The notes below the pieces were generated by a model that was given only the letters and a program-made list of their open reading frames with translations, was not told where the DNA came from and searched no databases. Both the position numbers and the translations under genes were made by a program. Of a DNA stretch of 64,000 bases, positions 24,360-60,043 are shown in pieces (within the stretch, counting starts at the first letter, position 1; each line of letters begins with the position of its first letter). The stretch spans positions 1,882,122 through 1,946,121 of the forward strand of contig OZ220729.1 in assembly GCA_965116895.1 (NCBI GenBank), read 5' to 3'. Origin of the DNA: Gammaproteobacteria bacterium (GTDB lineage Bacteria > Pseudomonadota > Gammaproteobacteria > Steroidobacterales > Foliamicaceae).

Positions 24360-24850
24360 TCCGACTGCTCCCGCTCGATCGACTCGGCGCCCGCGGCGCG
24401 CAGGATCTCCTCGGCCTCGGGCGCGCCGGGCCCGGCCACCGAAATCACGAAGCGGTCCACGTTGCTGGAGGCCCGGTAAGTGCGGTCCCGCCACGCCGGC
24501 AAGCGGGCCACGACGAAGAAGCCCAGCAGCGTCATCAGCGTGCCCAGCAGGATGGTGCTCTCGTAGGTAATCAGCAGGTACGGAGGCAGCGCGATCACGG
24601 GCCGCCCCGCGGTCGGCAGGATGAAGCGCGTGGCGGTCCACACGCACAGCGTGAATCCGCCGATGGCGCCCAGGATGCCTCCGAGCAGCGTGAACACCCG
24701 CACCATGGACTTGCCCAGCCCCAGCGCTTCGTCGGCCCCGTGCAGCGGGATCGGAGAATACAGATCCACTCCGGCAACGCCCTTCTCGCGCAGGGCACGG
24801 GCGGCGTCCAGCGCGGCGTCTTCGTGCGCGAATGAGGCCAGCAGCGTCAT
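24356..24850 (-). CDS. actD: Alternative complex III subunit ActD (DUF3341-like)
   Basis: 164 aa: soluble N-domain (LASFAHEDAALDAARALREKG) plus two TM helices. The position between the NrfD-like and cytochrome c genes is characteristic. Confidence 0.7.
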   Translation of the reverse strand: MTLLASFAHEDAALDAARALREKGVAGVDLYSPIPLHGADEALGLGKSMVRVFTLLGGILGAIGGFTLCVWTATRFILPTAGRPVIALPPYLLITYESTILLGTLMTLLGFFVVARLPAWRDRTYRASSNVDRFVISVAGPGAPEAEEILRAAGAESIEREQSE

Positions 24851-26205: not shown

Positions 26206-26207
26206 GG

Positions 26208-27056: not shown

Positions 27057-27060
27057 CGTC

Positions 27061-29247
27061 CTAGTGCTCGTCGTCCGGTCCGAGAATCTGCCGGCCCAGC
27101 GTGCGGCTGACGCCGCTGGTCCTTGTCATGCGTACGCGTTCGCCGGTCTTGCGCAGCGCCACGCGGGTGGCGGCCCAGGCCAGCGCCCCCGTGGATCCGT
27201 CGCTTTCCGCCGCGAGCAGCGAGGCCGGGTTCACCCCGCGCCCCTGCGCGTAACGACCATTGGCCTGGTGCCCCTGCCCCAGCGGCATGGCAATCACGTC
27301 GGGACGCACGCCCGGATACCGCAGCGCCGGCGCGGTCACCGTTCCGGCCTGCGAGCTCACTTCCACGACGTCGCCGTCCTTGAGGTCCAGCTCATCCGCG
27401 GTCGCCGGGTTCACTTCCACCCAGCTTCCGTAGGCAACGCTGGTCTGCGGGTCCGGCAGTTCCTGTATCCAGGGCAGCCTGGCGCCCTTGCCCTCGCGCA
27501 ATCCCGGCGTCTGAAAGGGGTGCAGCACGAAGGGATACTCGGATGCGTCGCCCGCAAACCGCGGCTCTGAAGGCGCCGCGGGAGCCGGGGCATCGGACGA
27601 GAACTCATCGGCCATTCCCTCCGCCAGGTCGGCAACCCAGACGCCCTGCTGCTGCACCTGCCGGAAACCGGCGTCGAAATCGTCCTCAATGCCGAGGTTC
27701 TTCCATGCAGTCGCCCACTCGGATCGGGTATAGGCTTCGGCGTCTTCATGGGGCAGCGCCTCGGCAAGAGCGCCGCCGGACCGTTGCGCAAGCTGCAGGA
27801 GGATATCGGTAACCGACAGCGTGTCATACAGGCGCCTTTGCACCGGCTGCTGCAAGGTGACCGACAGCTTCCCGTTTCCGGGAAGTGAAATGTCGTCGTC
27901 CCAGGTCTCGAAAAAAGTGTCCGTAGCCAGGATCCAGTCGGCCGCACTCGCCGTATCGCTGGGAAAGCTGTCCAGCGCCACAACCAGTTCGGCCCGGTCC
28001 AGGGCGCCGCGCAAGCCCAGGGAGTCCGGCAGATCGTGCAGCGGATCCACGCCCGCCACGATGACCAGCGACACTTCGCCGTTGGCCGCCTCGGCCACGA
28101 ATTTCTCTATCTCGCTCAGCGTGGAGAATCGGGGCGCGTGCGCCAGGTTGGGCCTGACGGTGGTCCCGGCGGCGCCCAGAATGCGGTTCAGCGCGGCCAC
28201 GCAGGTCAGCGCTTCGGTCGCGTTCACGCCCGCGCCCGCTGCTCCGCCTCCCAGGACCAGGGGTGTCCTGGCGGCGGCCAGCCGCTCGGCCAGCGCGCGC
28301 AATCGTTCGGCGGGCAGGTCCGCCAGCGCCGCGGCCTCGTCAAGGCTCAGGGCGCCGGACAGGCCTTCCCGGCCTGCCGGTCCCTCGTCCGCACCGCCCC
28401 GGCCATGCAACTCCGCGGCCAGCGCCAGCGCCAGCGCGCCTTCGGTGCCCGGCCGCGCGGGCAGCCACTCGTCCGCATTGGCGCCGGTCAGCGACATGCG
28501 CGGTTCGACCTGCACGAGGTATCCGCGATGGCCGTCGCCGCCCTGGCGAAACTCGCCGTAGGCCTTGGAATAGCCCACCGGCGAGCGCCATGCGCCGAGA
28601 AAGTCGGCGCCGAAGGAAACGACCAGGTCGGCTGATCCGATGTCGTAGTGAGGAAGGCCATTGAAGCCGTACATCGCCTTCGCGGCCGCCAGCTCGGTTG
28701 CCGGCGTGTCCAGCCCCAGACGCAGCACGTTCGCGCCCAGCGCTTCCCGGAACTTGTCCAGCGCCTCCTCGCCGGAACTGAGCAGGCCGCCGGTGAGGAT
28801 CCAGGTGCGGCTACCCATCCCCGCGGACTGCATCGCCCCCAGGCGCGGCGCGATGGCCTCAAGGGCCTCGTCCCAGGAAGATTCCACAAAGCCGCCTTCC
28901 CCGTCGGACCGCATGGGCGCACGCAGCCGGTCGGGGTTGTACAAGGCGTTGAGGCTGGCCTGGCCCAGCGCGCAGGTGCCGCCCCGGCTGACCGGATGAT
29001 TGGGATTGCCCTCGATCTTCTTGGCCCTGCCCTCGCGCACCCGAACCGAAATGCCGCAGCCGGCCGGGCACATGCGGCACAGGGTGTTGTACCAGGTGTC
29101 CATGCCCGGGGAGAAATCCTCGGGTGGAATATGCGTGGAGAGCAGCGTTTCCAGCGGACGCTGGTTCACTTCTCCGAGCAGAAGGCCGGTCCCGACGCCG
29201 ACTCCGCCGCCGGCCAGGTACTTGAATATGTCCCTGCGGTTCAGCAT
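27061..29247 (-). CDS. actB1: Alternative complex III subunit ActB1 (molybdopterin-oxidoreductase-like, Tat signal)
   Basis: Twin-arginine signal MLNRRDIFKYLAGGGVGVG. N-terminal Fe-S motif CRMCPAGCG. 728 aa with an MopB-like fold. Confidence 0.8.
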   Translation of the reverse strand: MLNRRDIFKYLAGGGVGVGTGLLLGEVNQRPLETLLSTHIPPEDFSPGMDTWYNTLCRMCPAGCGISVRVREGRAKKIEGNPNHPVSRGGTCALGQASLNALYNPDRLRAPMRSDGEGGFVESSWDEALEAIAPRLGAMQSAGMGSRTWILTGGLLSSGEEALDKFREALGANVLRLGLDTPATELAAAKAMYGFNGLPHYDIGSADLVVSFGADFLGAWRSPVGYSKAYGEFRQGGDGHRGYLVQVEPRMSLTGANADEWLPARPGTEGALALALAAELHGRGGADEGPAGREGLSGALSLDEAAALADLPAERLRALAERLAAARTPLVLGGGAAGAGVNATEALTCVAALNRILGAAGTTVRPNLAHAPRFSTLSEIEKFVAEAANGEVSLVIVAGVDPLHDLPDSLGLRGALDRAELVVALDSFPSDTASAADWILATDTFFETWDDDISLPGNGKLSVTLQQPVQRRLYDTLSVTDILLQLAQRSGGALAEALPHEDAEAYTRSEWATAWKNLGIEDDFDAGFRQVQQQGVWVADLAEGMADEFSSDAPAPAAPSEPRFAGDASEYPFVLHPFQTPGLREGKGARLPWIQELPDPQTSVAYGSWVEVNPATADELDLKDGDVVEVSSQAGTVTAPALRYPGVRPDVIAMPLGQGHQANGRYAQGRGVNPASLLAAESDGSTGALAWAATRVALRKTGERVRMTRTSGVSRTLGRQILGPDDEH

Positions 29248-29251
29248 GGCG

Positions 29252-29821
29252 TCAGTAGTGGCAGGTGAGGCAGTCGCGGCCGTTGGCCACGTCTTCCTCG
29301 GTGTGGCAATCGATGCACCAGGGCATGCGAAGGTTCTCGTTCAGATCGACGCGCCGCGTAACGCGAGCCATTTCCTCCACGGGTCCGTGGCAGGTCTGGC
29401 ATTCAACCCCGCCGCGGATATGCGGCTTGTGCCGGAAATGGACGAAATCCGGCGTATCGTGGACCTTCACCCAGGGGATGCCTTCTCCGCGCTCCCAGTA
29501 GTCGAAAAGCTTGACCACGTCGGGCTTGTCGCGAACCTCGGTGAGGCCCTTGTGGCAGCCCACGCAGGTCTCTACGCTGGGCACGCCAGCCGTCGCCGAG
29601 CGGCCGGCCCAGGAGTGGCAGTACTCGCAGGGAATCTCGTTTTCGCCGGCGTGAACCTCGTGGCTGAATTCGATCGGCTGGACCGGCGTGTAGTCGTTCA
29701 GCATGGCGCCGTGGGCCCAATGTCCGATGTAAGCACCGACAATCCCCAGCGCGGCAACAATCAAGCCCTTGATTACCGGCCGCGCGGCCTCGAAAACACC
29801 AATGGACACGAACAACTCCAA
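29252..29821 (-). CDS. actA: Alternative complex III subunit ActA (pentahaem cytochrome c)
   Basis: Five CxxCH motifs (CEYCH, CVGCH, CQTCH, CIDCH, CLTCH) after an N-terminal membrane anchor. Start is TTG 29821 or GTG 29809. Confidence 0.8.
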   Translation of the reverse strand: MELFVSIGVFEAARPVIKGLIVAALGIVGAYIGHWAHGAMLNDYTPVQPIEFSHEVHAGENEIPCEYCHSWAGRSATAGVPSVETCVGCHKGLTEVRDKPDVVKLFDYWERGEGIPWVKVHDTPDFVHFRHKPHIRGGVECQTCHGPVEEMARVTRRVDLNENLRMPWCIDCHTEEDVANGRDCLTCHY

Positions 29822-29922: not shown

Positions 29923-31455
29923 ATGCTGCAACACCGATTCATCGAAAGGGTCAGGAAACACCCGAACAAGACAGCCATCAGGGACAGGGCCACCCATCGG
30001 GATGTGACCTACTCACGGGCCCTGCTCGGCGCGCTTGTTCTGGCGCGGCGCTTCCGGAAAATGGAGCGAGGCCGCATCGGCATCATGTTGCCCACCTCGT
30101 CCGGTGGAGCCCTGGCTGTCGTGGGTGCGCTGATGGGCGGGTTGACACCCGTAATGATCAACTATTCGACCGGCGCCGCGAAAAACTGCGCGTACGCACA
30201 AGCCCAATGTGATTTCCGAACCATCGTCACGGCCCGCGCATTGGTGGAACGGGTCGGCTGCGAGGAACTGCCGGACATGGTGTTCATGGAGGACATCATG
30301 GCCGGACTGGGTCGCTACGAAAAGCTGCTGGCCTATCTCAAGTCCAGGCTGCCGCCGGGGTGGCTGAAGCGCATTACAGGCACTGGTGGCCTGGACAGTC
30401 CCGCCGTAATACTGTTTACCAGCGGCAGTGAGAAAGACCCCAAGGGTGTCCAGCTTACTCAGCGAAACATCCTGTCCAATATAGATTCCTTCTCCGACAT
30501 GATGGACATCCGCGGGATGGATCACATGCTGGCTGTGCTTCCCTACTTTCATGTGTTTGGCCTGACAATCCATCTCTGGACTCCCCTGTGTCTGGGAATG
30601 ACGGCCATTACCTACCCCAACCCTCTTGATTTCAAGGTCATCGCCAGACTCATCAGGGAAGAAAAACCCCAGCTGCTTGTCGGCACTCCACTGTTCCTGG
30701 AAGGATATGCAAGACAGTCCCGGCCGGGAGATTTCGCCAGTGTGAAACTGACCGTTGCGGGCGCCGACAAATGTCCCGATTCCCTCAGGCAACTCTACCG
30801 TGAGAAGCACAAGCTGGAGATTTTCGAAGGTTACGGCGCCACCGAGACTTCACCCGTTATCTCGGTGAACCCAAGGGACGGAAATCGCCCCGGCAGCATC
30901 GGCGTGCCGATACCGGGCACCCGGGTACGAATCGAGAACATCGACAACGGGGAGGACTGTGCGCCGGGCGAGATCGGCAGGATCATGGTGAAAGGCGAAG
31001 GGGTCATGTCCGGTTACCTGAATGACATGGCGGAGTCCCACCTGCGATTGAAGTCAGGCTGGTATGACACCGGCGATCTCGGGGTTCTCGATGAGGATGG
31101 CTATCTGTGGCACAAGGGTCGTCTCAAGCGATTCGTCAAGATAGGCGGCGAGATGGTCTCCCTGGTGAACGTGGAAGAGGCACTCAAGGAGGTAATCGGG
31201 GAAGACGTGGAGTGTTGCGCCGTGGAATTGCCGGATGCCAGGCGAGGTTCACGAATCATTGCAGTCACCAGCAGGCAGATCGATGAACGGGACGTGGCCA
31301 GGAGACTCACGGAACAGCTGCCCAACCTGGCGCTGCCGAAAAAGTACGTCGTGGTGAAGGAGTTCCCCGCCATGGGAAGCGGCAAGACTGATTTTCGCAC
31401 TCTCACCGACATTGTGCGCCGGCAGGAAGTCAACTCCCGGCGAGGACGCGCCTAG
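29923..31455 (+). CDS. AMP-dependent synthetase/ligase resembling the acyl-ACP synthetase domain of Aas
   Basis: AMP-binding motif ILFTSGSEKDPKGVQLTQRN, GYGATETSP, YDTGDLG. N-terminal region (LPTSSGGALAVVGALMGGLTPVMINYSTGA) recalls Aas-type enzymes. No acyltransferase domain. Confidence 0.75.
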   Translation: MLQHRFIERVRKHPNKTAIRDRATHRDVTYSRALLGALVLARRFRKMERGRIGIMLPTSSGGALAVVGALMGGLTPVMINYSTGAAKNCAYAQAQCDFRTIVTARALVERVGCEELPDMVFMEDIMAGLGRYEKLLAYLKSRLPPGWLKRITGTGGLDSPAVILFTSGSEKDPKGVQLTQRNILSNIDSFSDMMDIRGMDHMLAVLPYFHVFGLTIHLWTPLCLGMTAITYPNPLDFKVIARLIREEKPQLLVGTPLFLEGYARQSRPGDFASVKLTVAGADKCPDSLRQLYREKHKLEIFEGYGATETSPVISVNPRDGNRPGSIGVPIPGTRVRIENIDNGEDCAPGEIGRIMVKGEGVMSGYLNDMAESHLRLKSGWYDTGDLGVLDEDGYLWHKGRLKRFVKIGGEMVSLVNVEEALKEVIGEDVECCAVELPDARRGSRIIAVTSRQIDERDVARRLTEQLPNLALPKKYVVVKEFPAMGSGKTDFRTLTDIVRRQEVNSRRGRA

Positions 31456-32870
31456 AGAACGACCAGCGGGTCGTCCATCGTCGCCAGCGGCTCGAAACCG
31501 TCCTTCGTAACGACAATCAGATCTTCAAGGTGCGCGCCGCCCCAGCCGATCTCCAAAGACGGCATGTCGATGGTCAGCGTCATGTTCTCCCGGAACGTCA
31601 GGTCGTCCGAAACCATGAACGGCAAACCGTCCCGGTACGGCTGGTCGGTATGCTGCAGTCCCACGGAATGCGGCGAGGCGCCGAAGGTGGCTTTGGCCAG
31701 CGCCGCGTTCGCCTTGTTCATGGCCTCGCCCGCATGCGCCCGCAGTTCCGAGTACTTGAGGCCCGGACGAATCACGTCCAGCGCCGCCTCGTAGCCCTTT
31801 CGGATGATGCCCACCCGGTCGAGCACGTCCTTGCGGGGCTCGCCCAGGCACCAGGTGCGGCCGAAGTCGCCGTGGTAGTAGTTGATCTGGCACACCGCGT
31901 CGACCATCATCGGGCGTCCCGGCACGACCTCGCCGTCGGCGAACCCGCCGATCGTGCCCATCGCGATCCAGATCGCCTTCGCGCCGCGCTTGGCCGCTTC
32001 CTCAAGGAAGAGCTGGTCCGTGTCCGCCTTCGTCATCCCCGCTTCGACTTGTCGAAGCATCGCCATGCAGGCGTCCTGATTGGCCCGCGCCGCGGCGCGC
32101 ATGTGCCCGAGTTCCACCTCGGACTTGATCATCCGGATCTTGCGGAAGGTGTTGTCGCCGGGCACGCACCGGATCGTGTCCTGGCCCAGTGTCTCCAGAA
32201 TGTGCGCGATGCTCATGTCGTCCACCGCGACCCGGCCCTTCGCCAGCCCGGCTTCCTCCAGCGCGCGCACCAGCGCCCATTCCGGCGTGGCCGCCTTGCG
32301 GTTCTCGAAGCGGCGCTCCATTTCGACCCAGCCGCGTTCGATGTCCGTCAGGCTTTCTTCGCGAATCGGCCGGCTGAACCCGCCACGCGCTTCCGGTGGC
32401 CGGTTCCAGGTATCGGGGTCGCGGTACTGCTCCCACGCCACCGGCGCGCCGTACGGGATGATCTCGGGGTACTCCCGCTCGGCGTTGGCGATGAACCAGA
32501 GGTCGGTCGAGGCCACGACCAGGAACGAGGGCTTGCCGGGGTCGCGCGGCATGACCGCGAAGCTGGGAATGGCCCTGAGTTTCTGCACCTCGTACGAGAA
32601 GTAGTTGCCCAGGTAGAACACGTTGACCGGGTTGAGCGCGACGATCCCGTCGACGCCCTCCTGTTCCATCACCTCGTAGGCGCGCGGCCTGTTGACCAGG
32701 CTGCGCCCGTCGAAGTCCTCGCCCGGGACCGGTCCGGGAGCGATCAGCCCCCAGTTGGCGTGCGCCTGTTGCGCGCCCAGCATGCCGGCGCCCAGCGCAA
32801 ATGCCGCCCCGCCGGCAATCCCGGCAAAGAAGTCCCGGCGCTCGATGTGATAGGGATCGGGCTTCGTCAT
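31452..32870 (-). CDS. M24-family metallopeptidase/creatinase-like protein with Tat signal
   Basis: Real start is ATG at 32870 (MTKPDPYHIERRDFFAGIAGGAAFALGAGMLGAQQAHA); the upstream 168 codons of the track ORF are not credible. Creatinase_N-like N-domain plus pita-bread C-domain (VDAVCQINYYHGDFGRTW, PHSVGLQH, AHLEDLIVVT). ATGA overlap with the upstream gene. Confidence 0.75.
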   Translation of the reverse strand: MTKPDPYHIERRDFFAGIAGGAAFALGAGMLGAQQAHANWGLIAPGPVPGEDFDGRSLVNRPRAYEVMEQEGVDGIVALNPVNVFYLGNYFSYEVQKLRAIPSFAVMPRDPGKPSFLVVASTDLWFIANAEREYPEIIPYGAPVAWEQYRDPDTWNRPPEARGGFSRPIREESLTDIERGWVEMERRFENRKAATPEWALVRALEEAGLAKGRVAVDDMSIAHILETLGQDTIRCVPGDNTFRKIRMIKSEVELGHMRAAARANQDACMAMLRQVEAGMTKADTDQLFLEEAAKRGAKAIWIAMGTIGGFADGEVVPGRPMMVDAVCQINYYHGDFGRTWCLGEPRKDVLDRVGIIRKGYEAALDVIRPGLKYSELRAHAGEAMNKANAALAKATFGASPHSVGLQHTDQPYRDGLPFMVSDDLTFRENMTLTIDMPSLEIGWGGAHLEDLIVVTKDGFEPLATMDDPLVVL

Positions 32871-34195
32871 AGCGTGCCCTCCTTGAAAATGTCGTGAATT
32901 CCGTCGGCCAGGCGGTCCACCTGGTCCTCGGTGTTGTAGTGGTGGGTCGAGGCGCGCACCGTATTCAGGCCGTAGTCGGTCTCCCGCACCCAGACGCGGT
33001 TGCGCCGCCAGAGCGTATCGACCACCGCAATCCGGTCGAAGCCTTCCAGCGCGAAACCGGTCAGCCCGCAGCACAGTTCCGGGTTCTCCGAGGCGTACAG
33101 CGTCACTCCGGGAATCTCCCTGAGCCTTTCCCGCAGCCTTGCGGCCAGTGCCCGGACGCGTTCCTCGATGCGGCCGCGGCCGATGGCGTTCTGGAACTCT
33201 AGCGCCGCAAGCGTTGCCAGCAGCAACGGGCCGGCGCGCTGGCTCAGGCGGTCGTAGCGCTGCGCGCCGGTCTCCTCGTCGTCCCAGCCCATCGACGCCA
33301 CGGTCGGCCAGACCCTGTCCTGCGACTCGCGCCGCATATAGAGAAAGCCCGTCCCGACCGGCGCGCCCGCCCACTTGTAGGGGCTGGAGGCATAGAAGTC
33401 GACGCCCAGGTCCTGCATGTCCAGGTCGATCATCCCGATCGCGTGCGCGCCATCGACCAGCGTAAGGATGCCGCGGGGACGGGCCAGGCCCGCGAGCTGC
33501 CCCACCGGCAGCATGCAGCCGGTAGGAAACGTGACGTGACTGACGCTGATCACGCGGGTGCGGGGAGTGATGGCGTCCTCGAAGAGGCTCAGTAGTTCCG
33601 CCGGGTCCGAGACCGGAATCGGAAACGGCAGCTCCTTCACGACCACGCCGTGACGTTTCGCCTTGATTTTCCAGGGCTCCAGCCCGCCGGGATGCTCATG
33701 GAAGGTGCACAGCACCTCGTCGCCGGCCTTGAGGTCGAGACCATTGGCGATGAAACTCATTCCCTCGGTCGTATTCCGGGTCAATGCGACCTCGCCGGGG
33801 GCGGCGTTGACGAAGGCGGCCAGTTCCTGCCGCAATTCGTCCTCGGCCTCCACCTGGCGCGCGTTCTCGCGGCCGGGATCGGCGGCCAGCGACCGGTAGC
33901 CGTCCACCACGGCGTAAAACACGGGCTTTGGCATCGGACCAAGCGTGCCGCTGTTCATGTAGGCCAACTCGTCCGAGATCAGGAACTCGCGGCGCACTTT
34001 CGACCAGAAATCCTCTTCCGGCAGCGCCCGGGCCTCCTCCATCGAGGCGATCGACGCCCGGGCGTCGGCCCTGGACGCCCCGCCGGCCACGAACATGCCG
34101 GCCGACCCTGCCGCGACCGCGCCGAGAAACCGGCGGCGCGAAACACCGGCCGCGGTCCCCGGCTCCAGTACCGTTCCACGCAAGGGCTCCGGCAT
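32867..34195 (-). CDS. Class V aminotransferase-fold PLP enzyme (isopenicillin-N-epimerase/cysteine-desulfurase-like) with Tat signal
   Basis: ATG at 34195 preceded by GGGGAGG. Twin-arginine signal GVSRRRFLGAVAAGSAGMFVAGGASRADA. Fold-type I motifs (ALTRNTTEG, VDGAHAIG, ASSPYKW with the candidate PLP lysine). Confidence 0.75.
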   Translation of the reverse strand: MPEPLRGTVLEPGTAAGVSRRRFLGAVAAGSAGMFVAGGASRADARASIASMEEARALPEEDFWSKVRREFLISDELAYMNSGTLGPMPKPVFYAVVDGYRSLAADPGRENARQVEAEDELRQELAAFVNAAPGEVALTRNTTEGMSFIANGLDLKAGDEVLCTFHEHPGGLEPWKIKAKRHGVVVKELPFPIPVSDPAELLSLFEDAITPRTRVISVSHVTFPTGCMLPVGQLAGLARPRGILTLVDGAHAIGMIDLDMQDLGVDFYASSPYKWAGAPVGTGFLYMRRESQDRVWPTVASMGWDDEETGAQRYDRLSQRAGPLLLATLAALEFQNAIGRGRIEERVRALAARLRERLREIPGVTLYASENPELCCGLTGFALEGFDRIAVVDTLWRRNRVWVRETDYGLNTVRASTHHYNTEDQVDRLADGIHDIFKEGTL

Positions 34196-34300
34196 CGGCG
34201 CGCCTCCCCGAAATCGACGAAAGACCATAATAGACTACGCCGCTGATGCGGCCCCCGGAGGGACAGGCTGATACTTCCGCTGAAACCACACGCCCGAAAG

Positions 34301-35827
34301 TTGCGGCTTGCCCGAACCGCGTTTTGTTCGGCGGTCATTCTTGGAATCGCCACGATTTGCGAAGCGCCCCGGGCCTTCGCGGAGGAAACGCCGCTTCGCG
34401 TGGCGGTGACGCTCATGCCGGCCAGCTTCGGCGACCCTTTCCGGACCCTGGGCGTCCCGGGGGATTGGGTCTGGCGCCAGATCTTCGACCCGCTCACCGA
34501 AAGCGACGATGAAGGACGCATTGTTCCGCTGCTGGCCGAAAGCTTCGAGAATCTCGATCCCCACACCTGGCGTTTCGAGCTTCGCGAAGGCGTGCGCTAT
34601 GCCAACGGCCGGCCCTTCAACGCCTTCTCGGCAAAAGAAGTCTTCGACTGGCTGATCAGCGACGAGGGCCAGGCGACGGTCGTAGGCTGGGAGATACGCC
34701 GGGTCAGCAAGGTCGAGGCGCCCGATCCCCGCACGCTGATCTTCACCACCTGGGAACCGGACCCGGTCCTGCCCAACCGGCTGACTTCCGCGATGATGGT
34801 CGAGCCGCAGGCCTGGCGCGAACTGGGCCGGCAGGGTTTTTCGCGAACCCCTGTGGGCACGGGTTCGTACCTGCTCACGGACTGGCAGAACCGCAACGGA
34901 GCGGTGGTGCTCACGGCCAACCCGTACGCCTGGCGGCCGCCCGGAATTTCGCGGGCGGAGATCTATCCGCTGCGCGATCACGCCTCGCGTTTGCAGGCGG
35001 CCCTGTCCGGCCAGCTGGACATCATCATGTCCCTGCGCCCCGAGCAACTCGACATTTTTCACCGCCGCGGCTTTACGGTCCACGCCGATATCCTGCGGCA
35101 GATCCTCGCCTTCGCCTTCGACGTGACCGGGCATCCCGATTCGCCGATCGCGGACGTGCGCGTGCGCCAGGCGCTCAACTACGCCATTGACCGAAGGGCC
35201 ATCTCGGAAGACATCCTTCAGGGCTTTGCGCCGCCGGCCAGCCAGGGATCGGCGCCCAACGTGTTCGGCCACAATCCGCGGATCAAGCCCTATCCCCACG
35301 ATCCGGAGAAGGCCCGAGCGCTGCTCGCCGAGGCAGGCTACCCGCAGGGTTTCTCCACCGAGGTGCAGGTCGTGACCGGCACCTATCCCAACGACCTGGA
35401 AATCTTCGCCAAGCTGCAGCAGGACCTGGCGGCGGTGGGCGTTGACATGGCGTTCCGCAGGGTGCTGTTCTCCGACTGGATCCGCCAGTTCTTCCAGGGC
35501 GCGTGGCGCACCGAACTCTTCACTCTCGCCTGGAACACCGCGCCGCACAACGACGCATTGCGGCCCATGGAGCAGTATTCCTGCCTCAAGACCCGCCCGT
35601 TCTTCTGCGACGAAGGGCTGCGCGGAAAACTCGTGGCTGCCGGCCGGGAAATGGACACACGGCGAAGGGAGGCCCTGCTCCAGGAGCTGGCCCTCGACTA
35701 CCGGCAGCGCGCCGTCAGCCTGCTGCTGCTGGAGTACGGCCACATGTGGGTGGTGGCGCCCGGCTTGAGCGGGTTCCGCGTGCGCACCCGGGCTCCGCAG
35801 CTCTACCGCGTAGAGCGGGTCGAATGA
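34301..35827 (+). CDS. ABC transporter substrate-binding protein, family 5 (peptide/nickel/opine type)
   Basis: TTG start. Signal peptide (AFCSAVILGIATICEAPRAFA). SBP_bac_5-like length and motifs (RFELREGVRYANGRPF, GTGSYLLTDW). Confidence 0.8.
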   Translation: MRLARTAFCSAVILGIATICEAPRAFAEETPLRVAVTLMPASFGDPFRTLGVPGDWVWRQIFDPLTESDDEGRIVPLLAESFENLDPHTWRFELREGVRYANGRPFNAFSAKEVFDWLISDEGQATVVGWEIRRVSKVEAPDPRTLIFTTWEPDPVLPNRLTSAMMVEPQAWRELGRQGFSRTPVGTGSYLLTDWQNRNGAVVLTANPYAWRPPGISRAEIYPLRDHASRLQAALSGQLDIIMSLRPEQLDIFHRRGFTVHADILRQILAFAFDVTGHPDSPIADVRVRQALNYAIDRRAISEDILQGFAPPASQGSAPNVFGHNPRIKPYPHDPEKARALLAEAGYPQGFSTEVQVVTGTYPNDLEIFAKLQQDLAAVGVDMAFRRVLFSDWIRQFFQGAWRTELFTLAWNTAPHNDALRPMEQYSCLKTRPFFCDEGLRGKLVAAGREMDTRRREALLQELALDYRQRAVSLLLLEYGHMWVVAPGLSGFRVRTRAPQLYRVERVE

Positions 35828-36750
35828 TTCTTCCCGGTCTGGCGCAACGCGCCGTACGGCTGCTGATCCTGCTGCTGGGGGTGAACGCGCTGCTTTTCGT
35901 TGCGCTTGGCCTGGCCGGCGATCCGGCGCTGATGCTGGCCGGAGAGGACCCGACGCCGGAACTGCTTGAACGGATACGCGCCGAATACGGCCTCGACCTC
36001 CCGGCCTGGCAACGGTACCTCGTCCAGCTTGGGCGCATGGCACAACTCGACTTCGGCGTCTCGATCTATACCGGGCAACCGGCCCTGGTCATGGCGCTGG
36101 AACAACTGCCGGGCACGCTGCTGATGGCGGTACTCAGCATGGCCCTGACCCTGGTCACGGCCATCCCCGCCGGCGTCTGGATCGGCCAGCGTCCCGAGGC
36201 CGCTTCGCGCCGGTTCGGCGCCGCGCTGACTGCCGTGGCCCAGGGCATCCCCGGTTTCGTCATGGCGCTGGTGCTGATCCAGGTCTTCGTGGTGCGGCTC
36301 GGCTGGCTGCCCTCGCTCGGTTACTCGCAGCCGGCCGCCTGGATACTTCCGAGCATTTCGCTGGGTTTCTTCCTCGCGCCGAAACTGTGCCGCGTGGTCA
36401 GCGCCGGCGTTGCCGAGGCGATGCAGGAGGACTACATACGCACCGCCCGCGCCAACGGCGCGTCGATGCGGTTCATCCTCTGGAGAGAAGCGCTGCCTGC
36501 CGCCCTGCCGGCGGCGGTCGCGCTGGTGGGCACCCAATTCGCGTTCCTGGTTTCCGGCGTCGTGCTGATCGAGACCCTGTTCCTGTGGCCGGGCATCGGT
36601 CTGCTGCTGCTGTACTCGGCCCAGAACCTGGACTTTCCGGTGCTTCAGGCGATCTGCTTTGTCGTGGCGATCCTTGTGTTCCTGGTGAACAGCCTGGCGG
36701 ACGCCCTGTTGCGCCTGATGGACCCGAGGCTGAGGCCGGCAGCGCAATGA
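35824..36750 (+). CDS. ABC transporter permease (DppB/OppB-like)
   Basis: ATG at 35824 overlapping the SBP stop (ATGA). N-terminus MILPGLAQRAVRLLILLLGV and EAA-loop region (DYIRTARANGAS). Confidence 0.85.
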   Translation: MILPGLAQRAVRLLILLLGVNALLFVALGLAGDPALMLAGEDPTPELLERIRAEYGLDLPAWQRYLVQLGRMAQLDFGVSIYTGQPALVMALEQLPGTLLMAVLSMALTLVTAIPAGVWIGQRPEAASRRFGAALTAVAQGIPGFVMALVLIQVFVVRLGWLPSLGYSQPAAWILPSISLGFFLAPKLCRVVSAGVAEAMQEDYIRTARANGASMRFILWREALPAALPAAVALVGTQFAFLVSGVVLIETLFLWPGIGLLLLYSAQNLDFPVLQAICFVVAILVFLVNSLADALLRLMDPRLRPAAQ

Positions 36751-37592
36751 AAACGGAACAGGCTTTGCGCCGGATGCTGGCGCCGCTCAAGGCGTCGCCC
36801 CAACTGGCGCTGGGCGCGGCGGCGCTGCTGGGCTGGGTGCTGCTGCTGGCGCTGGGCGGGCTGCTGCAGACGCACGACCCGCAATTGGGCGACCTGGCGG
36901 AACGCTTTGCACCGGCGGGTGCCGCGGGCCACCTGCTGGGGACCGACAACCTGGGGCGGGACCTCTGGTCGCGGGTACTTTCGGGTCTTCCATGGTCGGT
37001 GGGCGTCGCAACCGTTTCCTGCATCCTGGCGCTGCTGCTGGGCGGCACGCTGGGCATGTGCGCCGCGCAGTTCCCGGGCCACCCTCGCACCGCCATCAAT
37101 CAACTGGTCGACGCCACGCTGTCCTTTCCGGGGCTGGTCGCGGCGATCATCATCGTGGCGATAGCGGGCCGGGGATTCTGGCCGCTCAGCATCACCTTGG
37201 GACTGCTGAGCTGGCCGGTTTTCGCCCGCGTAGTCTACGCCGAGAGCCTGCGCCTGCTGGCCGAAGACTACGTGACGGCGGCCCGGATCATGGCGGTGAG
37301 CACGCCGCGCATTCTGCTGGGCCACCTGCTGCCGGGGCTGCGCCCGGTGCTTGCGGTGGTATTCACGTTTCATTTCGCCGACATGCTGGTGGCGGAAAGC
37401 GCCCTCTCCTTCCTGGGTCTGGGAGCGCCGCTGGGCGTTCCCACCTGGGGCTCGCTGTTGCAGGAATCGCGCGACTTCCTGATCGTCGCGCCCTGGCTGA
37501 TGATCGTGCCCGCCACCGCCATCGCCCTGCTGGTCGTTTCCATCCACCTGCTGGGAGACGGCCTGAGCGCACTGGATCGGGCTCGCAGATGA
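36747..37592 (+). CDS. ABC transporter permease (DppC/OppC-like)
   Basis: ATG at 36747 overlapping the previous stop (ATGA). HLLGTDNLGRDLWSRVL motif, EDYVTAARIMAVS EAA loop. Confidence 0.85.
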   Translation: MKTEQALRRMLAPLKASPQLALGAAALLGWVLLLALGGLLQTHDPQLGDLAERFAPAGAAGHLLGTDNLGRDLWSRVLSGLPWSVGVATVSCILALLLGGTLGMCAAQFPGHPRTAINQLVDATLSFPGLVAAIIIVAIAGRGFWPLSITLGLLSWPVFARVVYAESLRLLAEDYVTAARIMAVSTPRILLGHLLPGLRPVLAVVFTFHFADMLVAESALSFLGLGAPLGVPTWGSLLQESRDFLIVAPWLMIVPATAIALLVVSIHLLGDGLSALDRARR

Positions 37593-39160
37593 ACGCTTCC
37601 GCCTCCCTTCTGCGAATACGCGAGCTGTGCGTGGATTTTCCCCGCGCCGGCAGGGTCCTGCACGGCGTATCGCTGGATGCGGCCGAGGGAGAAGTCGTGG
37701 GCCTGGTCGGTGAGTCGGGCGCCGGCAAGACGCTGGCGGCGCTGGCCATTCTGGGCCTCGTGCCCACGCCGGGACGCATCGCCGGCGGCAAGGTGTTCGT
37801 CAGGGACAGGGAGCTGACCCAACTCGATGAAGAAGCCCTGCGGCCATTGCGCGGCCGGCTCGCCGGATTCGTCTTTCAGGATCCCCTGAAATCACTCAAC
37901 CCGGTCCGCCCGATCGGTTCCGCGCTGGTCGAAAGCGCCATGCGCCATACCGGGCTGACGCGCCAAGAGGCGCGGATGAGAGCGATCGAAGCCCTGCGCT
38001 CGGTCGAACTGCCCAAACCGGAATCGGCCCTGCGCGCCTACCCGCACCAGTTCTCGGGCGGCCAGCGTCAGCGCATCATGATCGCCCTGGCGCTGATAAA
38101 CCAGCCGCCGCTGCTCATCGCCGACGAGCCCACGACGGCGCTGGACGCCGCGGTGCAGTCACGGATCCTTGATCTGCTCAAACGCCGCGCAAAGCGCCAC
38201 ACGCTGCTGATGATCACCCACGACCTGGCGCTGGCCGCCCGTTTCTGCGACCGCCTCTACGTCATGCACGGCGGGCGGGTGGTGGAGCATGGGCCGGCCC
38301 GCGAACTGTTCTCCAGGCCCCGCCACGAATACACCCGCTCGCTGCTGGACGCGATGCCGGGAAAACGGGCGGCCGCTCGCGGGCGCGTCGGCCGCCCGAA
38401 ATCGCGGGAGGCCCTGGTCGCCCTGCGCGGCCTTACGGTCCGCTACCGGGGGGCGCGGCAACCGGCCGTAGAAAACGTCGATTTCTCGATTGGGGCCAAC
38501 GAAACCGTGTGCCTGGTGGGAGAGTCCGGATCGGGCAAGACCACGATTGCGCGCGCGCTGGCGGGCGTAATCAGGGTAGAACCCGAACAACTCCGATTCC
38601 CGGCGCTGAACGACGAATTGCCGGGCGCGACGGTTCGCGCGCGCCATCTGCAGATGGTTTTCCAGGACCCCTATTCCAGTCTCAACCCGCGGTGGCCCGT
38701 GGAACGCATCGTCGCCGAACCGATCCGCACCCACCGCCTGTGCGCCCGTGCGGAGCAAAAGGCCCGAGTGGCCGCTCTCCTGGGCCGCGTCGGCCTGGAT
38801 CCGGAGCAGATGGACCGGCGCCCGGCGGCTTTCTCCGGGGGCCAGCGCCAGCGAATCGCCCTGGCGCGCGCGCTGGCGATGAATCCGCGCCTGCTGCTGG
38901 CCGATGAAGCGCTCTCCGCGCTGGACATTCGCACCCAGGCCCGGATCCTGGCGCTGCTTCGGGACATCCGCGAAGAACGCAGACTGGCGCTGCTGCTCAT
39001 AACGCACGACCTGGCGCTGGCCGCGGAAATCGGCGACCGCGTGATCGTGCTCCGCCGCGGAAGGATCGTCGAACAGGGGCCCGCGTCCAGGGTCATGAAC
39101 GCGCCCCGGCACGAATACACCCGCGAACTGCTCGCCGCCCAGGCGCGCTGGCGCCCGTAG
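37589..39160 (+). CDS. ABC transporter ATP-binding protein, fused double ATPase (DppD/DppF-like)
   Basis: ATG at 37589 (ATGA overlap). Two Walker A motifs (GESGAGKT, GESGSGKTT) and two signature motifs (FSGGQRQRI twice). Confidence 0.9.
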   Translation: MNASASLLRIRELCVDFPRAGRVLHGVSLDAAEGEVVGLVGESGAGKTLAALAILGLVPTPGRIAGGKVFVRDRELTQLDEEALRPLRGRLAGFVFQDPLKSLNPVRPIGSALVESAMRHTGLTRQEARMRAIEALRSVELPKPESALRAYPHQFSGGQRQRIMIALALINQPPLLIADEPTTALDAAVQSRILDLLKRRAKRHTLLMITHDLALAARFCDRLYVMHGGRVVEHGPARELFSRPRHEYTRSLLDAMPGKRAAARGRVGRPKSREALVALRGLTVRYRGARQPAVENVDFSIGANETVCLVGESGSGKTTIARALAGVIRVEPEQLRFPALNDELPGATVRARHLQMVFQDPYSSLNPRWPVERIVAEPIRTHRLCARAEQKARVAALLGRVGLDPEQMDRRPAAFSGGQRQRIALARALAMNPRLLLADEALSALDIRTQARILALLRDIREERRLALLLITHDLALAAEIGDRVIVLRRGRIVEQGPASRVMNAPRHEYTRELLAAQARWRP

Positions 39161-39204: not shown

Positions 39205-40698
39205 GTGAAACGTCGAGAACTGCTTAAAGGCGCGGGCGCCGGCCTGACCCTGGCGATCCCGGCCGTGCGGGCCGGCACACTGCTGGAATCGCAGTGGGAT
39301 TTCATCGTCGTGGGCGCGGGCACCGCGGGACTGCCCGCCGCCATCCACGCCTCCAGGCGCGGCGCGAAGGTCCTGATGCTGGAAGCGGCCGACGCGCTGG
39401 GCGGCACGCTGACCATGGCCTCGGGTCAGGTCAGCGCGGCCGGGACACGGCTGCAGGAAGCCAGGGGCATCGCCGATTCGCCGGACCGACACTTCGAGGA
39501 CATCATGGAGATCACCTTTGGCGAGGCGGACCCGAAGATCGTTCGGCGCACCGTGGACCTCGCGCCGGACACGCTGAACTGGCTGCTGGACAAGGGGCTG
39601 GTTCCGCTACCCGGTCACCCGGTGACAGGAGCGGCGCCGGGGCGCGCAGGTTACAGCGTTCCGCGTTATTTCTGGGCCGAGGAGGCCGGCAAGGCGATCC
39701 TCAAGGTGGTGCTCGAGGAGCTTGAGCGCGAAATGCCGCAAGGCAATATCGCGATCCGCCTCGACACCCGGGTGACCGGGCTGCTGACGTCCGATTCGGG
39801 CGCGGTGGAAGGCGTTCGCGCGGAGAGCGGCGACGAGGAATGGACTTTCCGCGGGCGCCACATCCTGCTCACCAGCGGCGGCTACGCCATGAACCCGGAC
39901 ATGTTCGAGCTGCTGACCGGCCATCCGGCCTACGCCGCCGGTTCCTGGCCGCATTCCATGGGCGACGGCCTGGACCTGGCCGTTTCCGTAGGCGGCTGGC
40001 TGCGCGGCCAGCACCTTCATCGAGCCGGCACCGGCTCCATCCTTACCAGGGCGGCATTTCCCGCCAAGGTCTACGCGCGTTTCGCGACGGTCCCTCAGGA
40101 ACGTCTGCCCTGGGAAATCTGGGTCAACGATTCGGGGCAGCGTTTCATTCGCGAGGACGAACCGCTGGTGCGCCCACGGGCTCGCGCCGTGCTCGCACTG
40201 CCGCGCCTTCGCTACGTCATCGTTTTCGACGAGAACATCTTCAACAGCGCACCGCCCGGGTTGCCACAGTTCAGCCGGGAGGAGTTTCTCGCCCACTGCG
40301 AGAACCATCCCATGTTCGCCCGCGCCGACAGCCTGGCCGAGCTGGCGGCGGCAGCGGACGTGGACGCAGCGGGACTGACGCAGACCGTCCGCGACTACAA
40401 CGATGCGGTGGCCGGCGGCGAAGACCCGCTCGGGCGGCGGCATCTGCCCGCGCCCATCGCCGAGCCGCCCTTCTACGCCATCACGCACCTGGGCAGTTCG
40501 GCCACGTCGTCGGCCGGCGTGGTGGTGAACGACGCGCACCAGGTCGTGCGCGGGAACCAGGAGCCGGTGCCGGGGCTCTACGCCGCCGGCGAAGTCCTCG
40601 GGTCCGGCACCACGCTGGGCTCCACGTTCGCGCCCGGAATGATGCTCACTCCGGCACTCTCCATCGGCCGCTGGCTAGGCATGACCCTGCCCATCTGA
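39205..40698 (+). CDS. FAD-dependent oxidoreductase (FAD_binding_2, fumarate-reductase/KstD-like) with Tat signal
   Basis: GTG start. Twin-arginine signal VKRRELLKGAGAGLTLAIPAVRA. Dinucleotide fold DFIVVGAGTAGLPAAIHASRRGAKVLMLEA. C-terminal LYAAGEVLGSG motif. Confidence 0.8.
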   Translation: MKRRELLKGAGAGLTLAIPAVRAGTLLESQWDFIVVGAGTAGLPAAIHASRRGAKVLMLEAADALGGTLTMASGQVSAAGTRLQEARGIADSPDRHFEDIMEITFGEADPKIVRRTVDLAPDTLNWLLDKGLVPLPGHPVTGAAPGRAGYSVPRYFWAEEAGKAILKVVLEELEREMPQGNIAIRLDTRVTGLLTSDSGAVEGVRAESGDEEWTFRGRHILLTSGGYAMNPDMFELLTGHPAYAAGSWPHSMGDGLDLAVSVGGWLRGQHLHRAGTGSILTRAAFPAKVYARFATVPQERLPWEIWVNDSGQRFIREDEPLVRPRARAVLALPRLRYVIVFDENIFNSAPPGLPQFSREEFLAHCENHPMFARADSLAELAAAADVDAAGLTQTVRDYNDAVAGGEDPLGRRHLPAPIAEPPFYAITHLGSSATSSAGVVVNDAHQVVRGNQEPVPGLYAAGEVLGSGTTLGSTFAPGMMLTPALSIGRWLGMTLPI

Positions 40699-40734: not shown

Positions 40735-42924
40735 TCAGAAGATGTAGGTTGCGGTAGCTCCGATCTGCCGCGGGTCCGCCAGCGGATACTGGAAGGCGCG
40801 AACGAATCCCGAGGTGCGGGCGCTGTCGCCGCGCGGCAGGATGTTCTTGAAGTCCACGAAGCGGATCACCGTGGAAGGCGTGCGGTCGTCCGTCAGGTTG
40901 CGCACGAACAGCCCCAGCTGCCATTGCCCCACGTCCAGCCCAAGCTTCACATTGATCAGGTTCTGATCGCCGCTGTGGGCATGGTTGAAGATCTGCGCGT
41001 ACTTGCGGCTGGCGTATGCGTAGTCGGCGCGGATGTAGGCGGTATTGGCGCCCACCGGCCACTCGTAGCGGGCGAAGGCGTTGGCCATGTGCTTCGACGC
41101 GTTGGGCGTCTGGTTGCCGGCCACCGACGGATTGCCGCCGGTAAATACGGCCTGTTCCCGGAACTCGTCAAACTCCACGAATGTGGCGTCGTTCAGCGCG
41201 TAGCCGAAGCCGGCGGTGAACTGCTCATTGAAGATATGCGCCACTTCCAGCTCCAGACCCTTGCCCTCGGTTTCACCGGCATTGGTTACGTACGACACCG
41301 GGCGGCCGTCGCTGAGCAGGCCGGTGGTGGTGAGCTGCTGCTTGGTCCAGTCGATGAAATACACGGCCACGTTCAAGGTCGTGCGGCCATCGTTCAGCGT
41401 GTTCTTGGTGCCCACCTCGACGTTGAAGGATTCTTCCTCCTCCGCAAACCGCAGCGAAGGATCCAGTAACGGGTTGGCGTTGATGAAGCCGGGCTTGTTA
41501 CCCACGGCCACCGTCCCGTAAATCATCCGGCCGTCGGCGTATTTCCAGTCCAGCGTGGCGCGCGGCGACCAGGTCTTGAAGGTGTTCTCGATCAGAGGCA
41601 GCGTGGGGCGCGCGGGCGGATTGTCGTTGCCGATCTTGTCCGATGCATAACGCAGTTCCAGCGTGCCGGTAACGGTATCGGAAAAGTCGCGCGCGACCGA
41701 TCCGAACACGGCCCAGTTGTCGGTGCGGGCCTCGCCCTGATCGACGGTGCGGCCGTTGAGGCGGTCCTCGCGAAAGTCCCGGCGGCTCTGATACAGGTAC
41801 ACCCCGCCCAGCAGCCGGGTGGCGGACACCAGGTCGGTGCTGATCAGCAACTCGGTGGACCACTCGCGGCGGTCGCTCACCGCGATGCGATTGAAGGTTC
41901 CGCCCAGTGCGGTCGAGTTGGACGTGATGTCCACGTCATAACCGTAGGTGGAATCGGCATTGAAATAGCCGGTGTTGGACCGCACGGTGAAGCCGCCCAG
42001 GTCCCATTCAAGCTGCGCCGATGCGCGCCAGGCCGTCTTGTCGAGTCCGATATCGTCGCCGAACAGGTCCAGGTTCTGCTCGGTGCTGTCCAGTTCCGCA
42101 ACCTCGCCGCAGTAGTACTGCCGCGCGATTTCCAGGAAACAGTTGTTGTAGCTGCGGTCCTGCAGGGTTACCGCGGCCGCGCCGTCGTCGTCACTGCCGT
42201 AGCCCAGATTGAATCGGGCCGTGAAGCTGTCCGAGGGCCGCAGCTCCACGGACAGGTTCAGGTTGATCGACTCCTCGTCGCCCACAAGCTGGTTGTCCAG
42301 CGTGTTTCGATAGAAGCCGCCGTAGGTGTAGTAGCGCACGTGGGCCATGTAGAAGGCGGTGTCCTGCGCCAGGGGTCCGCGCGAAAGAAGGCTGATTTCG
42401 CCCTCCTCGTGCTCCGCCACGCGCAGCGAAAACTTGTTTTCGGGCTCGTTGGTGCCCGTCTTGGTGATCAGGTTGATGGCGCCGGCGAAGGTGGCCCGGC
42501 CGAACAGCGCCGCCTGGGGGCCCTTGATCACTTCCACCCGTTCGACGATATCGAACGGAAACGACAGGATCGAATCGTTGTAGAGCACGCCGTCCACGAA
42601 GATGGAAGCGTTGGCGCCGCCGAGGATCTGCGACTGGCCGCGGATGACCGGCCGGCTGCCTCCTCCCTGCACGCCGTAGCGGTTCAGTTTCTCGAACGAG
42701 AAGCCCGGCGTGAACTGGCTGATGTCCATCACGTCGGACAGGCCCCGCTCGCTGATCTCGGCCGCCGTGAAGGCGCTGATCGTGAGCGGCACGTCCTGGA
42801 TCCGCTCTTCCTGCTTGCGCGCGGTAACCACGACTTCCTCGATCTCGCCGGCTTCCTGTTGCGCCAGGGCCGGCGGCGCGGTCAGGGCAAACGCGCAGGC
42901 AAGAATGGTGATTCGAATCCTCAT
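40735..42924 (-). CDS. TonB-dependent receptor (TBDR-3)
   Basis: ATG at 42924 gives MRIRITILACAFALTAPPALAQQE. Plug EIEEVVVTARKQEERIQDVPLTISAF. Ends ..GATATYIF. Confidence 0.85.
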   Translation of the reverse strand: MRIRITILACAFALTAPPALAQQEAGEIEEVVVTARKQEERIQDVPLTISAFTAAEISERGLSDVMDISQFTPGFSFEKLNRYGVQGGGSRPVIRGQSQILGGANASIFVDGVLYNDSILSFPFDIVERVEVIKGPQAALFGRATFAGAINLITKTGTNEPENKFSLRVAEHEEGEISLLSRGPLAQDTAFYMAHVRYYTYGGFYRNTLDNQLVGDEESINLNLSVELRPSDSFTARFNLGYGSDDDGAAAVTLQDRSYNNCFLEIARQYYCGEVAELDSTEQNLDLFGDDIGLDKTAWRASAQLEWDLGGFTVRSNTGYFNADSTYGYDVDITSNSTALGGTFNRIAVSDRREWSTELLISTDLVSATRLLGGVYLYQSRRDFREDRLNGRTVDQGEARTDNWAVFGSVARDFSDTVTGTLELRYASDKIGNDNPPARPTLPLIENTFKTWSPRATLDWKYADGRMIYGTVAVGNKPGFINANPLLDPSLRFAEEEESFNVEVGTKNTLNDGRTTLNVAVYFIDWTKQQLTTTGLLSDGRPVSYVTNAGETEGKGLELEVAHIFNEQFTAGFGYALNDATFVEFDEFREQAVFTGGNPSVAGNQTPNASKHMANAFARYEWPVGANTAYIRADYAYASRKYAQIFNHAHSGDQNLINVKLGLDVGQWQLGLFVRNLTDDRTPSTVIRFVDFKNILPRGDSARTSGFVRAFQYPLADPRQIGATATYIF

Positions 42925-43000
42925 GAGCAATACTCCGGATGCTGGAAAACGACGCAATATACCCAAAAAGGCGCCGGCGAGCCACTATGGCGTCGAGGCG

Positions 43001-44504: not shown

Positions 44505-44647
44505 TACGGCAGTCCTCCCTTGCCCGGAATCATACTACGCGGCCGTTTTGTGCGGCCACGTCGTTGAACTTCAGCGATGGCGCGCGGAATTCCGTTTAGA
44601 CTTAGCGCCCCGCCGGTCGGAGAGACCGGGAAACTGAGGGGTACTTG

Positions 44648-59984: not shown

Positions 59985-60043
59985 GGCTGCTCTCCGTTAC
60001 ATGCGAGTTGAAAGACGCCGAAAGCATAGCTTGTTCCCGGGGG

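Follow-up and report, generated by a model that had tools for sequence, protein, structure and literature searches.

Does the class V aminotransferase-fold enzyme encoded at 34195..32867 on the minus strand of a gammaproteobacterial contig work in the cytoplasm or in the periplasm, and what would it do there? The stretch analyzed here, called the window, comprises 64,000 nucleotides of contig OZ220729.1 (positions 1,882,122 to 1,946,121), and all coordinates below refer to it unless another locus is named. The open reading frame (ORF) begins at ATG 34195, ends with TGA 32869..32867 and codes for a 442-residue product predicted to depend on pyridoxal 5'-phosphate (PLP). The evidence assembled below makes it probable that this product is a class V PLP enzyme of fold type I whose twin-arginine signal peptide is cleavable, encoded in what may be a locus for periplasmic processing and uptake. 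The gene has the following features.

34203..34209, minus strand: Shine-Dalgarno-like GGGGAGG, 7 nt before ATG 34195, read from the sequence.
34061..34195, minus strand: predicted signal peptide for twin-arginine translocation (Tat), residues 1-45 (TIGR01409; conservation in 82/82 loci).
34133..34138, minus strand: codons of the twin arginines R20 and R21 (invariant alignment columns).
32867..34060, minus strand: mature class V aminotransferase-fold PLP domain, residues 46-442 plus the stop codon (Pfam PF00266, AlphaFold 2 (AF2), Foldseek).
33374..33376, minus strand: codon of K274, the Schiff-base lysine in SSPYKW (invariant in the family).

The N-terminus reads MPEPLRGTVLEPGTAAGVSRRRFLGAVAAGSAGMFVAGGASRADA, followed by RASIASMEE. 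An n-region precedes the S19-R20-R21-R22-F23-L24 core, the h-region extends from G25 to A40 as a 16-residue, Gly/Ala-rich and weakly hydrophobic stretch, and the c-region, S41-RADA-45, carries an AxA site. The initial annotation described a near-consensus Tat signal, and this description was borne out. The NCBIfam model TIGR01409 (TAT_signal_seq) matched residues 18-45 with 17.5 bits against a curated cutoff of 16.7, and the match ends exactly at the ADA small-x-small site. A Tat-like N-terminus, defined as RR with at least 12 uncharged residues in a row after it, is present in 116 of the 120 closest homologues (55-91% identity) from a 5.8-billion-protein collection. A set of 82 loci was assembled from a scan of 185,579 species genomes (80 loci) and two loci fetched earlier, and SRRxF[LV] occurs in frame upstream of the catalytic domain in all 82, down to 42% identity. 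The enzymes of this set are 66-91% identical to the window protein in Candidatus (Ca.) Foliamicus-like Gammaproteobacteria, 67-73% in Vicinamibacterales, 51-62% in other Acidobacteriota and 42-46% in Aminicenantes and Gemmatimonadota. R20 and R21 are invariant in alignments of 20 and 52 sequences. The ratio of nonsynonymous to synonymous substitution rates (dN/dS) between the window gene and seven orthologues is 0.26-0.45 in the signal region and 0.13-0.24 in the mature part, and the proportion of synonymous differences (pS) exceeds that of nonsynonymous differences (pN) in the signal region, which indicates that the region is translated. Five of the seven comparisons show the strongest constraint of the signal on its RR core (dN/dS 0.00-0.21), and the core value stays at or below 0.45 in all seven. 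The signal region is under purifying selection, and its being more relaxed than the mature part is expected of a signal peptide. These five independent lines (the TIGR01409 score, the homologue N-termini, the 82 loci, the invariant arginines and dN/dS) show that the twin-arginine signal is real.

A start downstream of RR would turn the signal into an untranslated leader or a gene-calling artefact and leave a cytoplasmic enzyme. Class V enzymes normally stay in the cytoplasm, a Tat-like N-terminus is missing from about 13% of the nearest full-length cluster representatives, and the annotated starts disagree: public records show 442-, 444- and 455-aa forms, with some NCBI entries choosing the longer start (455 aa). 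All of the alternative annotated starts lie upstream of RR, however, and the RR signal is retained with any of them. The in-frame ATG 34228 would give a 453-aa protein, 11 residues longer than the 442-aa form, and the internal methionines M34 and M52 are variable among homologues. Homologue N-termini (MPEPLRE...) begin at the equivalent of ATG 34195, which is preceded by the ribosome-binding site GGGGAGG, a sequence mostly kept across the aligned upstream regions of relatives. ATG 34195 is thus supported as the predicted start codon by its ribosome-binding site and by the homologue N-termini, as the initial annotation had proposed. Its proviso that the true start might lie downstream of RR was checked, and homologues and conservation place the start upstream. 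A mis-called start is very unlikely in view of these starts, of the RR and hydrophobic stretch kept at the protein level in every locus examined, and of pS exceeding pN.

The region ahead of the start codon holds a second conserved element.

34226..34237, minus strand: invariant 12-nt motif TAGTCTATTATG, about 30 nt upstream of the start codon and containing ATG 34228.

TAGTCTATTATG has no second copy in the window (chance expectation 0.02 matches) and precedes the orthologous gene in 13 loci of Gammaproteobacteria, where the flanking DNA diverges. The motif keeps no fixed reading frame with respect to the ORF from one locus to the next, which identifies it as a non-coding element. It is probably a -10 box or an operator, a candidate control site for the aminotransferase operon or for the divergent transporter operon described below. 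A consensus promoter and terminator scan found no element in the intergenic region and made no call at TAGTCTATTATG, and an Rfam scan found no RNA element near the aminotransferase gene.

The catalytic domain was examined for an intact cofactor site. Pfam PF00266 (Aminotran_5) matched residues 98-440 to model positions 10-371 of 371 with 158.7 bits (gathering cutoff 21.5, E 2.6e-46). K274 aligns with the PLP lysine of SufS (sshK) and of PvdN (gthKW); the coordinates, the RR motif and the lysine in SSPYKW all agree with what had first been read from the sequence. K274, D248, H166/H168, S271, T142/T143 and R414 are invariant in the 20- and 52-sequence alignments. The PLP and carboxylate ligands of SufS and PvdN align to invariant residues, with R414 as the carboxylate-binding Arg, H168 as the stacking His, D248 as the pyridine-N Asp, and S271 and T142/T143 as the phosphate Ser/Thr. 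As judged from these alignments, the PLP-binding site is intact. The AF2 model, built from the 52-sequence alignment, has a mean predicted local distance difference test (pLDDT) score of 84; confidence is low only for residues 1-41 and one loop, and falls below 50 at residues 1-19 and 30-41. Foldseek placed PvdN (5i90) at a TM-score (TMt) of 0.86, with a root-mean-square deviation of 3.0 and 29% identity, the cystine lyase C-DES at a TMt of 0.83-0.85 and SufS at about 0.78-0.80. A sequence search of the PDB gave 132 bits for PvdN and about 120 bits for SufS and C-DES. A start upstream of RR, a Tat signal and an intact PLP site together support periplasmic PLP chemistry, which the initial annotation had put forward, and on this sequence evidence a periplasmic location is very likely.

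The chemistry itself is narrowed on one side. Strong full-length similarity to SufS/CsdA, and the name 'selenocysteine lyase/cysteine desulfurase' given to relatives by the Joint Genome Institute (JGI), would fit a cysteine desulfurase that works in the periplasm to supply an exported acceptor with persulfide sulfur. The Bacillus subtilis SufS loop RAGHHCAQP, however, aligns to RRNRVWVRE, which puts Trp in place of the catalytic Cys, and no invariant Cys was found in the family alignments. These two findings exclude a SufS/IscS-type persulfide mechanism as far as the sequence can tell. All of the desulfurase hidden Markov models (HMMs) score far below their cutoffs (TIGR01979 SufS 149.9 vs 475.1, CsdA 91.6 vs 607, IscS 60.6 vs 548 bits), and the Pfam annotation of window genes shows no SufE/SufU-like gene near the enzyme. 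Desulfuration by persulfide transfer, one of the chemistries first suggested, is therefore predicted to be unlikely, and an exported cysteine desulfurase was rejected for want of the catalytic Cys, leaving it an extremely improbable explanation. An encapsulin-cargo desulfurase (NF041166) was also set aside: its model matches the catalytic domain alone and gives 110.8 bits, where the cutoff is 800. Where SufS has a Gln after the PLP Asp, the window enzyme has His (H251), as does PvdN (DGAHA vs DGVHG). Epimerization, transamination, C-S/beta-elimination as in C-DES and PvdN-like oxidative decarboxylation are all candidate reactions.

The enzyme has many relatives. An exhaustive HMMER search of 1.84 billion 50%-identity cluster representatives returned 24,463 matches at E ≤0.001 and 1,411 at ≤1e-30. 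The best 150 representatives all score at least 211 bits, compared with 132 bits for PvdN in the separate PDB search, and a Tat-like N-terminus was found in 101 of the 116 full-length proteins among these 150 (87%). Names in the public records are generic ('aminotransferase class V-fold PLP-dependent enzyme', 'selenocysteine lyase/cysteine desulfurase', 'isopenicillin-N epimerase'). Literature searches returned no paper on this Tat-signal clade, and nothing useful on Tat and PLP beyond PvdN and PtaA or on 'Foliamicus'. The window enzyme belongs among these Tat-signal class V proteins, a large clade without a name that forms a sister group to the known enzymes. The enzyme is about 70% identical between the Ca. 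Foliamicus-like Gammaproteobacteria (L003-L012) and metagenome-assembled genomes of Vicinamibacterales, in the Acidobacteriota (L013-L033). So high an identity is well beyond what two phyla would be expected to show, and it suggests that the gene was transferred horizontally. Several isolate labels (SB06xx, COS, Plut) look like those of sponge or coral metagenome bins. Loci of the Aminicenantes/Gemmatimonadota type (L048-L082, 42-46% identity) share the N-terminus SRRDFVKYLxAGSALS....LNKLNAS(V/I)YQSI. A DUF362 protein is encoded directly upstream in 12 of them, the representative examined having an RR motif of its own, and a secreted DUF6599 protein often lies between the DUF362 gene and the enzyme gene.

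The aminotransferase gene is followed by a partner.

31452..32870, minus strand: M24-fold metallohydrolase with a pita-bread domain, 472 aa (Pfam PF00557, 90.9 bits, cutoff 23, E 1.3e-25).

The ATG of the M24 gene overlaps the aminotransferase stop codon (ATGA), and from this overlap the two genes are predicted to be translationally coupled and co-transcribed. The M24 protein begins with MTKPDPYHIERRDFFAGIAGGAAFALGAGMLGAQQAHA, then NWGLIAPGP. Among its 120 best homologues, mostly from Alphaproteobacteria, 114 of the 118 full-length proteins (97%) have a Tat-like N-terminus, and the ANWG motif is conserved at the mature end; the window N-terminus scores below the TIGR01409 and PF10518 cutoffs. 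Compared with Deinococcus prolidase (5giu), four of the five metal ligands (D, D, H and E) are unchanged and the fifth, Glu, is Asp (TIEPG to TIDMP). All specific NCBIfam models for the M24 protein score below their cutoffs. The M24 gene and the enzyme gene are adjacent in 14 of 14 gammaproteobacterial loci, two of them without the transporter.

Divergent from the pair and beyond it lie genes for transport and redox functions.

34301..39160, plus strand: peptide/opine-type ATP-binding cassette (ABC) importer, divergent (Pfam; gene calls in the identical locus L001).
34301-35827, plus strand: SBP_bac_5 binding protein, NikA/Opp-like (Pfam).
About 35824-36750 and 36747-37592, plus strand: two ABC permeases.
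About 37589-39160, plus strand: fused double ATPase.
39205..40698, plus strand: FAD_binding_2 flavoprotein, flavocytochrome c/TcuA-like (Pfam PF00890, E 1.2e-46).
40735..42966, minus strand: TonB-dependent outer-membrane receptor, convergent with the flavoprotein gene (Pfam Plug and TonB_dep_Rec_b-barrel).

The ABC transporter is present in 12 of the 14 gammaproteobacterial loci, and the flavoprotein in all of those that reach far enough except L010. The flavoprotein scores 175 bits with NCBIfam TIGR01813, below the cutoff of 285. Its N-terminal KRRELLKGAGAGLTLAIPAVRA precedes the Rossmann GxGxxG and is Tat-like by the RR-plus-uncharged-run test; its PF10518 score of 12.8 bits is under the cutoff. 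The gene at the receptor position is called a TonB-dependent receptor in L002 and belongs to an unannotated gene cluster in six other loci. What is new here is the ATGA-overlapping M24 partner with a conserved RR signal of its own, beside an importer, a flavoprotein and a receptor. The position of the PLP-M24 pair next to an importer, an RR-signal flavoprotein and a TonB-dependent receptor suggests a locus for periplasmic substrate processing and uptake.

A sequence of steps can be proposed for this locus. By analogy with PvdN, the apoprotein would bind PLP at K274 and fold in the cytoplasm, probably as a dimer, TatABC would export the folded holoenzyme, signal peptidase would cut near A45/R46, and the enzyme would act in the periplasm on a compound whose alpha-amino acid group is free. 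A substrate with a peptide or amide link may enter through the outer membrane by way of the receptor and be hydrolyzed by the M24 enzyme. The amino-acid moiety set free in this way may next be converted by the PLP enzyme, possibly with the flavin enzyme, through elimination, transamination or oxidative decarboxylation, and the ABC system would import the products. Such a periplasmic catabolic module, running from receptor to M24 to PLP enzyme to ABC importer, is the leading candidate for the role of the locus and is put forward tentatively. A bolder proposal, which we regard as doubtful, is that the clade is an unstudied cross-phylum group with PvdN as a distant, specialized cousin, and that Ca. 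Foliamicus-like bacteria have an undescribed pathway of three cofactor-loaded Tat cargoes. The cargoes may be the PLP enzyme, the dimetal M24 hydrolase and the flavoprotein, fed by the TonB-dependent receptor and drained by the ABC importer, with host-derived cystine, gamma-glutamyl or other amino-acid conjugates as candidate substrates.

Several observations weigh against a cleavable Tat signal in a processing and uptake locus. Pfam PF10518 (TAT_signal) gave no match to the aminotransferase N-terminus, tatABC was not seen within the 64-kb window, and the Aminicenantes-type members have no obvious AxA site. The reciprocal check showed that the M24 family in other lineages is never beside this enzyme. 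The link to M24, ABC importer, flavoprotein and receptor is confined to one gammaproteobacterial lineage, where it is inseparable from plain synteny, and the neighbors in other phyla are an Atg22-like major facilitator superfamily transporter, DUF362 (with an RR signal), DUF6599 and DUF5916. A survey of neighbors across 80 related loci, with ORF calling filtered by third-codon-position G+C (GC3), found no neighbor common to all phyla. The limitation of M24 adjacency to the gammaproteobacterial group means that guilt by association yields no family-wide function. An ActB-like molybdoprotein encoded within the window is another Tat-type substrate and was counted in favor of Tat use by the organism.

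The missing AxA site of distant members also bears on whether the signal is cut at all. An uncleaved Tat signal anchor would leave the enzyme facing the periplasm but tethered to the inner membrane, and residues 40-60 are conserved and predicted to be helical (pLDDT 80-92), as such an anchor would allow. The window protein itself has a canonical small-x-small ADA site at which the TIGR01409 match ends, its Gly/Ala-rich, weakly hydrophobic h-region is typical of cleaved Tat signals, and PvdN crystallized as a soluble periplasmic protein (PDB 5i90/5hh9). A tethered enzyme is decidedly unlikely on this evidence, and cleavage of the exported enzyme near A45/R46 is inferred only.

The M24 family has a different setting in other organisms, as seen in three loci.

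L084 4358-9413, L085 1984-7039 and L083 3932-9410: IclR/TonB-dependent receptor/VOC or hydantoinase contexts of M24.

The RR-signal M24 gene of Alphaproteobacteria comes directly after genes for an IclR regulator, a TonB-dependent receptor and two secreted VOC/glyoxalase-domain proteins, and in Altererythrobacter an M24 family gene lies beside hydantoinase A/B genes. The VOC-domain gene at 44645-45658 of the window is 37% identical to L084 11835-12803, about 2.4 kb beyond the M24 gene of L084. The similarity of the window receptor and VOC genes to M24 neighbors elsewhere is generic only, at 25-40%.

Further genes of the window are listed here.

22528-29821, minus strand: alternative-complex-III (ACIII)-like or Qrc-like gene set (multihaem cytochrome, molybdopterin subunit, 4Fe-4S protein, NrfD-like membrane subunit, others).
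29252-29821, minus strand: multihaem cytochrome.
27061-29247, minus strand: molybdopterin-family subunit with an RR N-terminus (best match QrcB, 295 bits, below the cutoff of 440).
7238-9643, 40735-42966, 48164-51370 and 55744-58380: TonB-dependent receptor genes, at least four in 64 kb.
51295-52116: TauD-family dioxygenase.
53648-55618: tetratricopeptide repeat (TPR)-sulfotransferase.
58443-62074, minus strand: cluster of MttB-family methyltransferase, pterin-binding protein and B12-binding protein.
62216 onward: FAD oxidoreductase gene after the MttB cluster.

All gammaproteobacterial relatives have the ACIII/Qrc-like set downstream of the PLP-M24 pair, and an acyl-ACP synthetase gene stands between the pair and this set in the window and in three other loci. 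The four receptors, the dioxygenase and the sulfotransferase suggest a region rich in uptake and scavenging functions. Rfam PYLIS_3 matched 58847-58946 on the minus strand with 39.1 against a gathering cutoff of 38, inside the uninterrupted MttB ORF. From its sequence MttB looks like the non-pyrrolysine type, perhaps active in quaternary-amine demethylation, and the match does not look like a Pyl insertion site.

The locus bears on how widely folded export of PLP enzymes is used. Most of what has been documented of PLP chemistry in the periplasm comes from two pyoverdine-tailoring enzymes of Pseudomonas. Class V enzymes with a Tat signal occur much more widely, in at least 100 50%-identity clusters from several phyla and also outside siderophore clusters; the export of folded PLP enzymes would in that case be a general strategy rather than a peculiarity of Pseudomonas. 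An operon of a PLP enzyme and a Tat-signal metallohydrolase beside uptake genes is a testable example that could reveal a nutrient-scavenging role. The practical gain is modest: an annotation better than 'class V-fold PLP-dependent enzyme', a desulfurase function excluded on sequence and a candidate for substrate discovery.

PvdN is the closest characterized system. It converts an N-terminal gamma-linked Glu to succinamide by oxidative decarboxylation. Experiments have shown that it depends on Tat and on PLP: Tat exports it in the folded state with its PLP, and it stays stuck in the membrane when its active-site lysine is mutated (PMC6206403). Its chemistry is an O2-dependent decarboxylation (PMC7497351). 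PvdN and the window enzyme share the class V/fold-type I PLP fold, an N-terminal twin-arginine signal, the lack of a catalytic Cys and a His after the PLP-binding Asp, where SufS has Gln. PvdN is also the best HMM, PDB-sequence and TM-score match to the window enzyme. These likenesses, and the presence nearby of a TonB-dependent receptor and a NikA/Opp-like binding protein as in metallophore loci, would fit a PvdN orthologue or another periplasmic enzyme that tailors a secreted metabolite, for example a siderophore, in a biosynthetic and not a catabolic role. The top NCBIfam match, NF051467 ('pyoverdine-tailoring periplasmic protein PvdN'), covers residues 43-442 (E 1.5e-46), but its 159 bits are far below the equivalog cutoff of 650 and identity is about 29%. 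The PvdN score is no better than that of SufS or C-DES within error, and the best 150 cluster representatives outscore it. The window has no pvdMNO or pyoverdine context: no PvdM/PvdO, nonribosomal peptide synthetase (NRPS) or exporter genes were found within it, the partner is an M24 hydrolase and not PvdM/PvdO, and the adjoining transport genes are importers. The neighbors are instead M24, the ABC importer, the flavoprotein, the TonB-dependent receptor, the acyl-ACP synthetase and the ACIII-like genes. PvdN orthology was rejected on the score and the gene context, and a tailoring role of this kind is unlikely. The window enzyme is not to be filed as PvdN, because equivalog cutoff and gene context both fail.

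The other class V enzymes resemble the window enzyme in part. C-DES, the cystine C-S lyase of Synechocystis (PDB 1elq/1n2t), is a class V enzyme without the desulfurase Cys loop, and its 120 bits and TMt of 0.83-0.85 equal those of PvdN and SufS within error. C-DES is cytoplasmic and is not known to carry a signal peptide. By analogy with C-DES, cystine would be a plausible substrate in the oxidizing periplasm. SufS/CsdA type II desulfurases share the overall fold, the PLP Lys, the Asp, the stacking His and the carboxylate-binding Arg, whereas the window enzyme has Trp for the catalytic Cys, His for the Gln next to PLP O3' and a Tat signal. The isopenicillin N epimerase-like label is an automated JGI name on relatives at 55-58% identity; it denotes class V without desulfurase chemistry, but the window locus has no beta-lactam context.

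PtaA, the periplasmic transaminase A of Pseudomonas fluorescens, is a second PLP enzyme of the periplasm exported by Tat; homologues of it are found in species without pyoverdine synthesis, where roles in other periplasmic pathways have been proposed for them (PMC6206403). The likeness to the window enzyme is Tat export of a PLP enzyme, experimentally established for PtaA; PtaA is described as a normal transaminase, and the comparison with it is one of descriptions. With PvdN and PtaA as precedents, the statement in the initial annotation that the physiological role of such an enzyme is essentially uncharacterized was too strong. Tat-exported class V-fold PLP enzymes are already an established kind, and it is this clade and its substrate that are uncharacterized. 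The signal itself will not surprise a specialist who knows PvdN and PtaA, and the breadth of the clade and the pairing with an M24 gene in one operon make the enzyme a reasonable target for substrate discovery.

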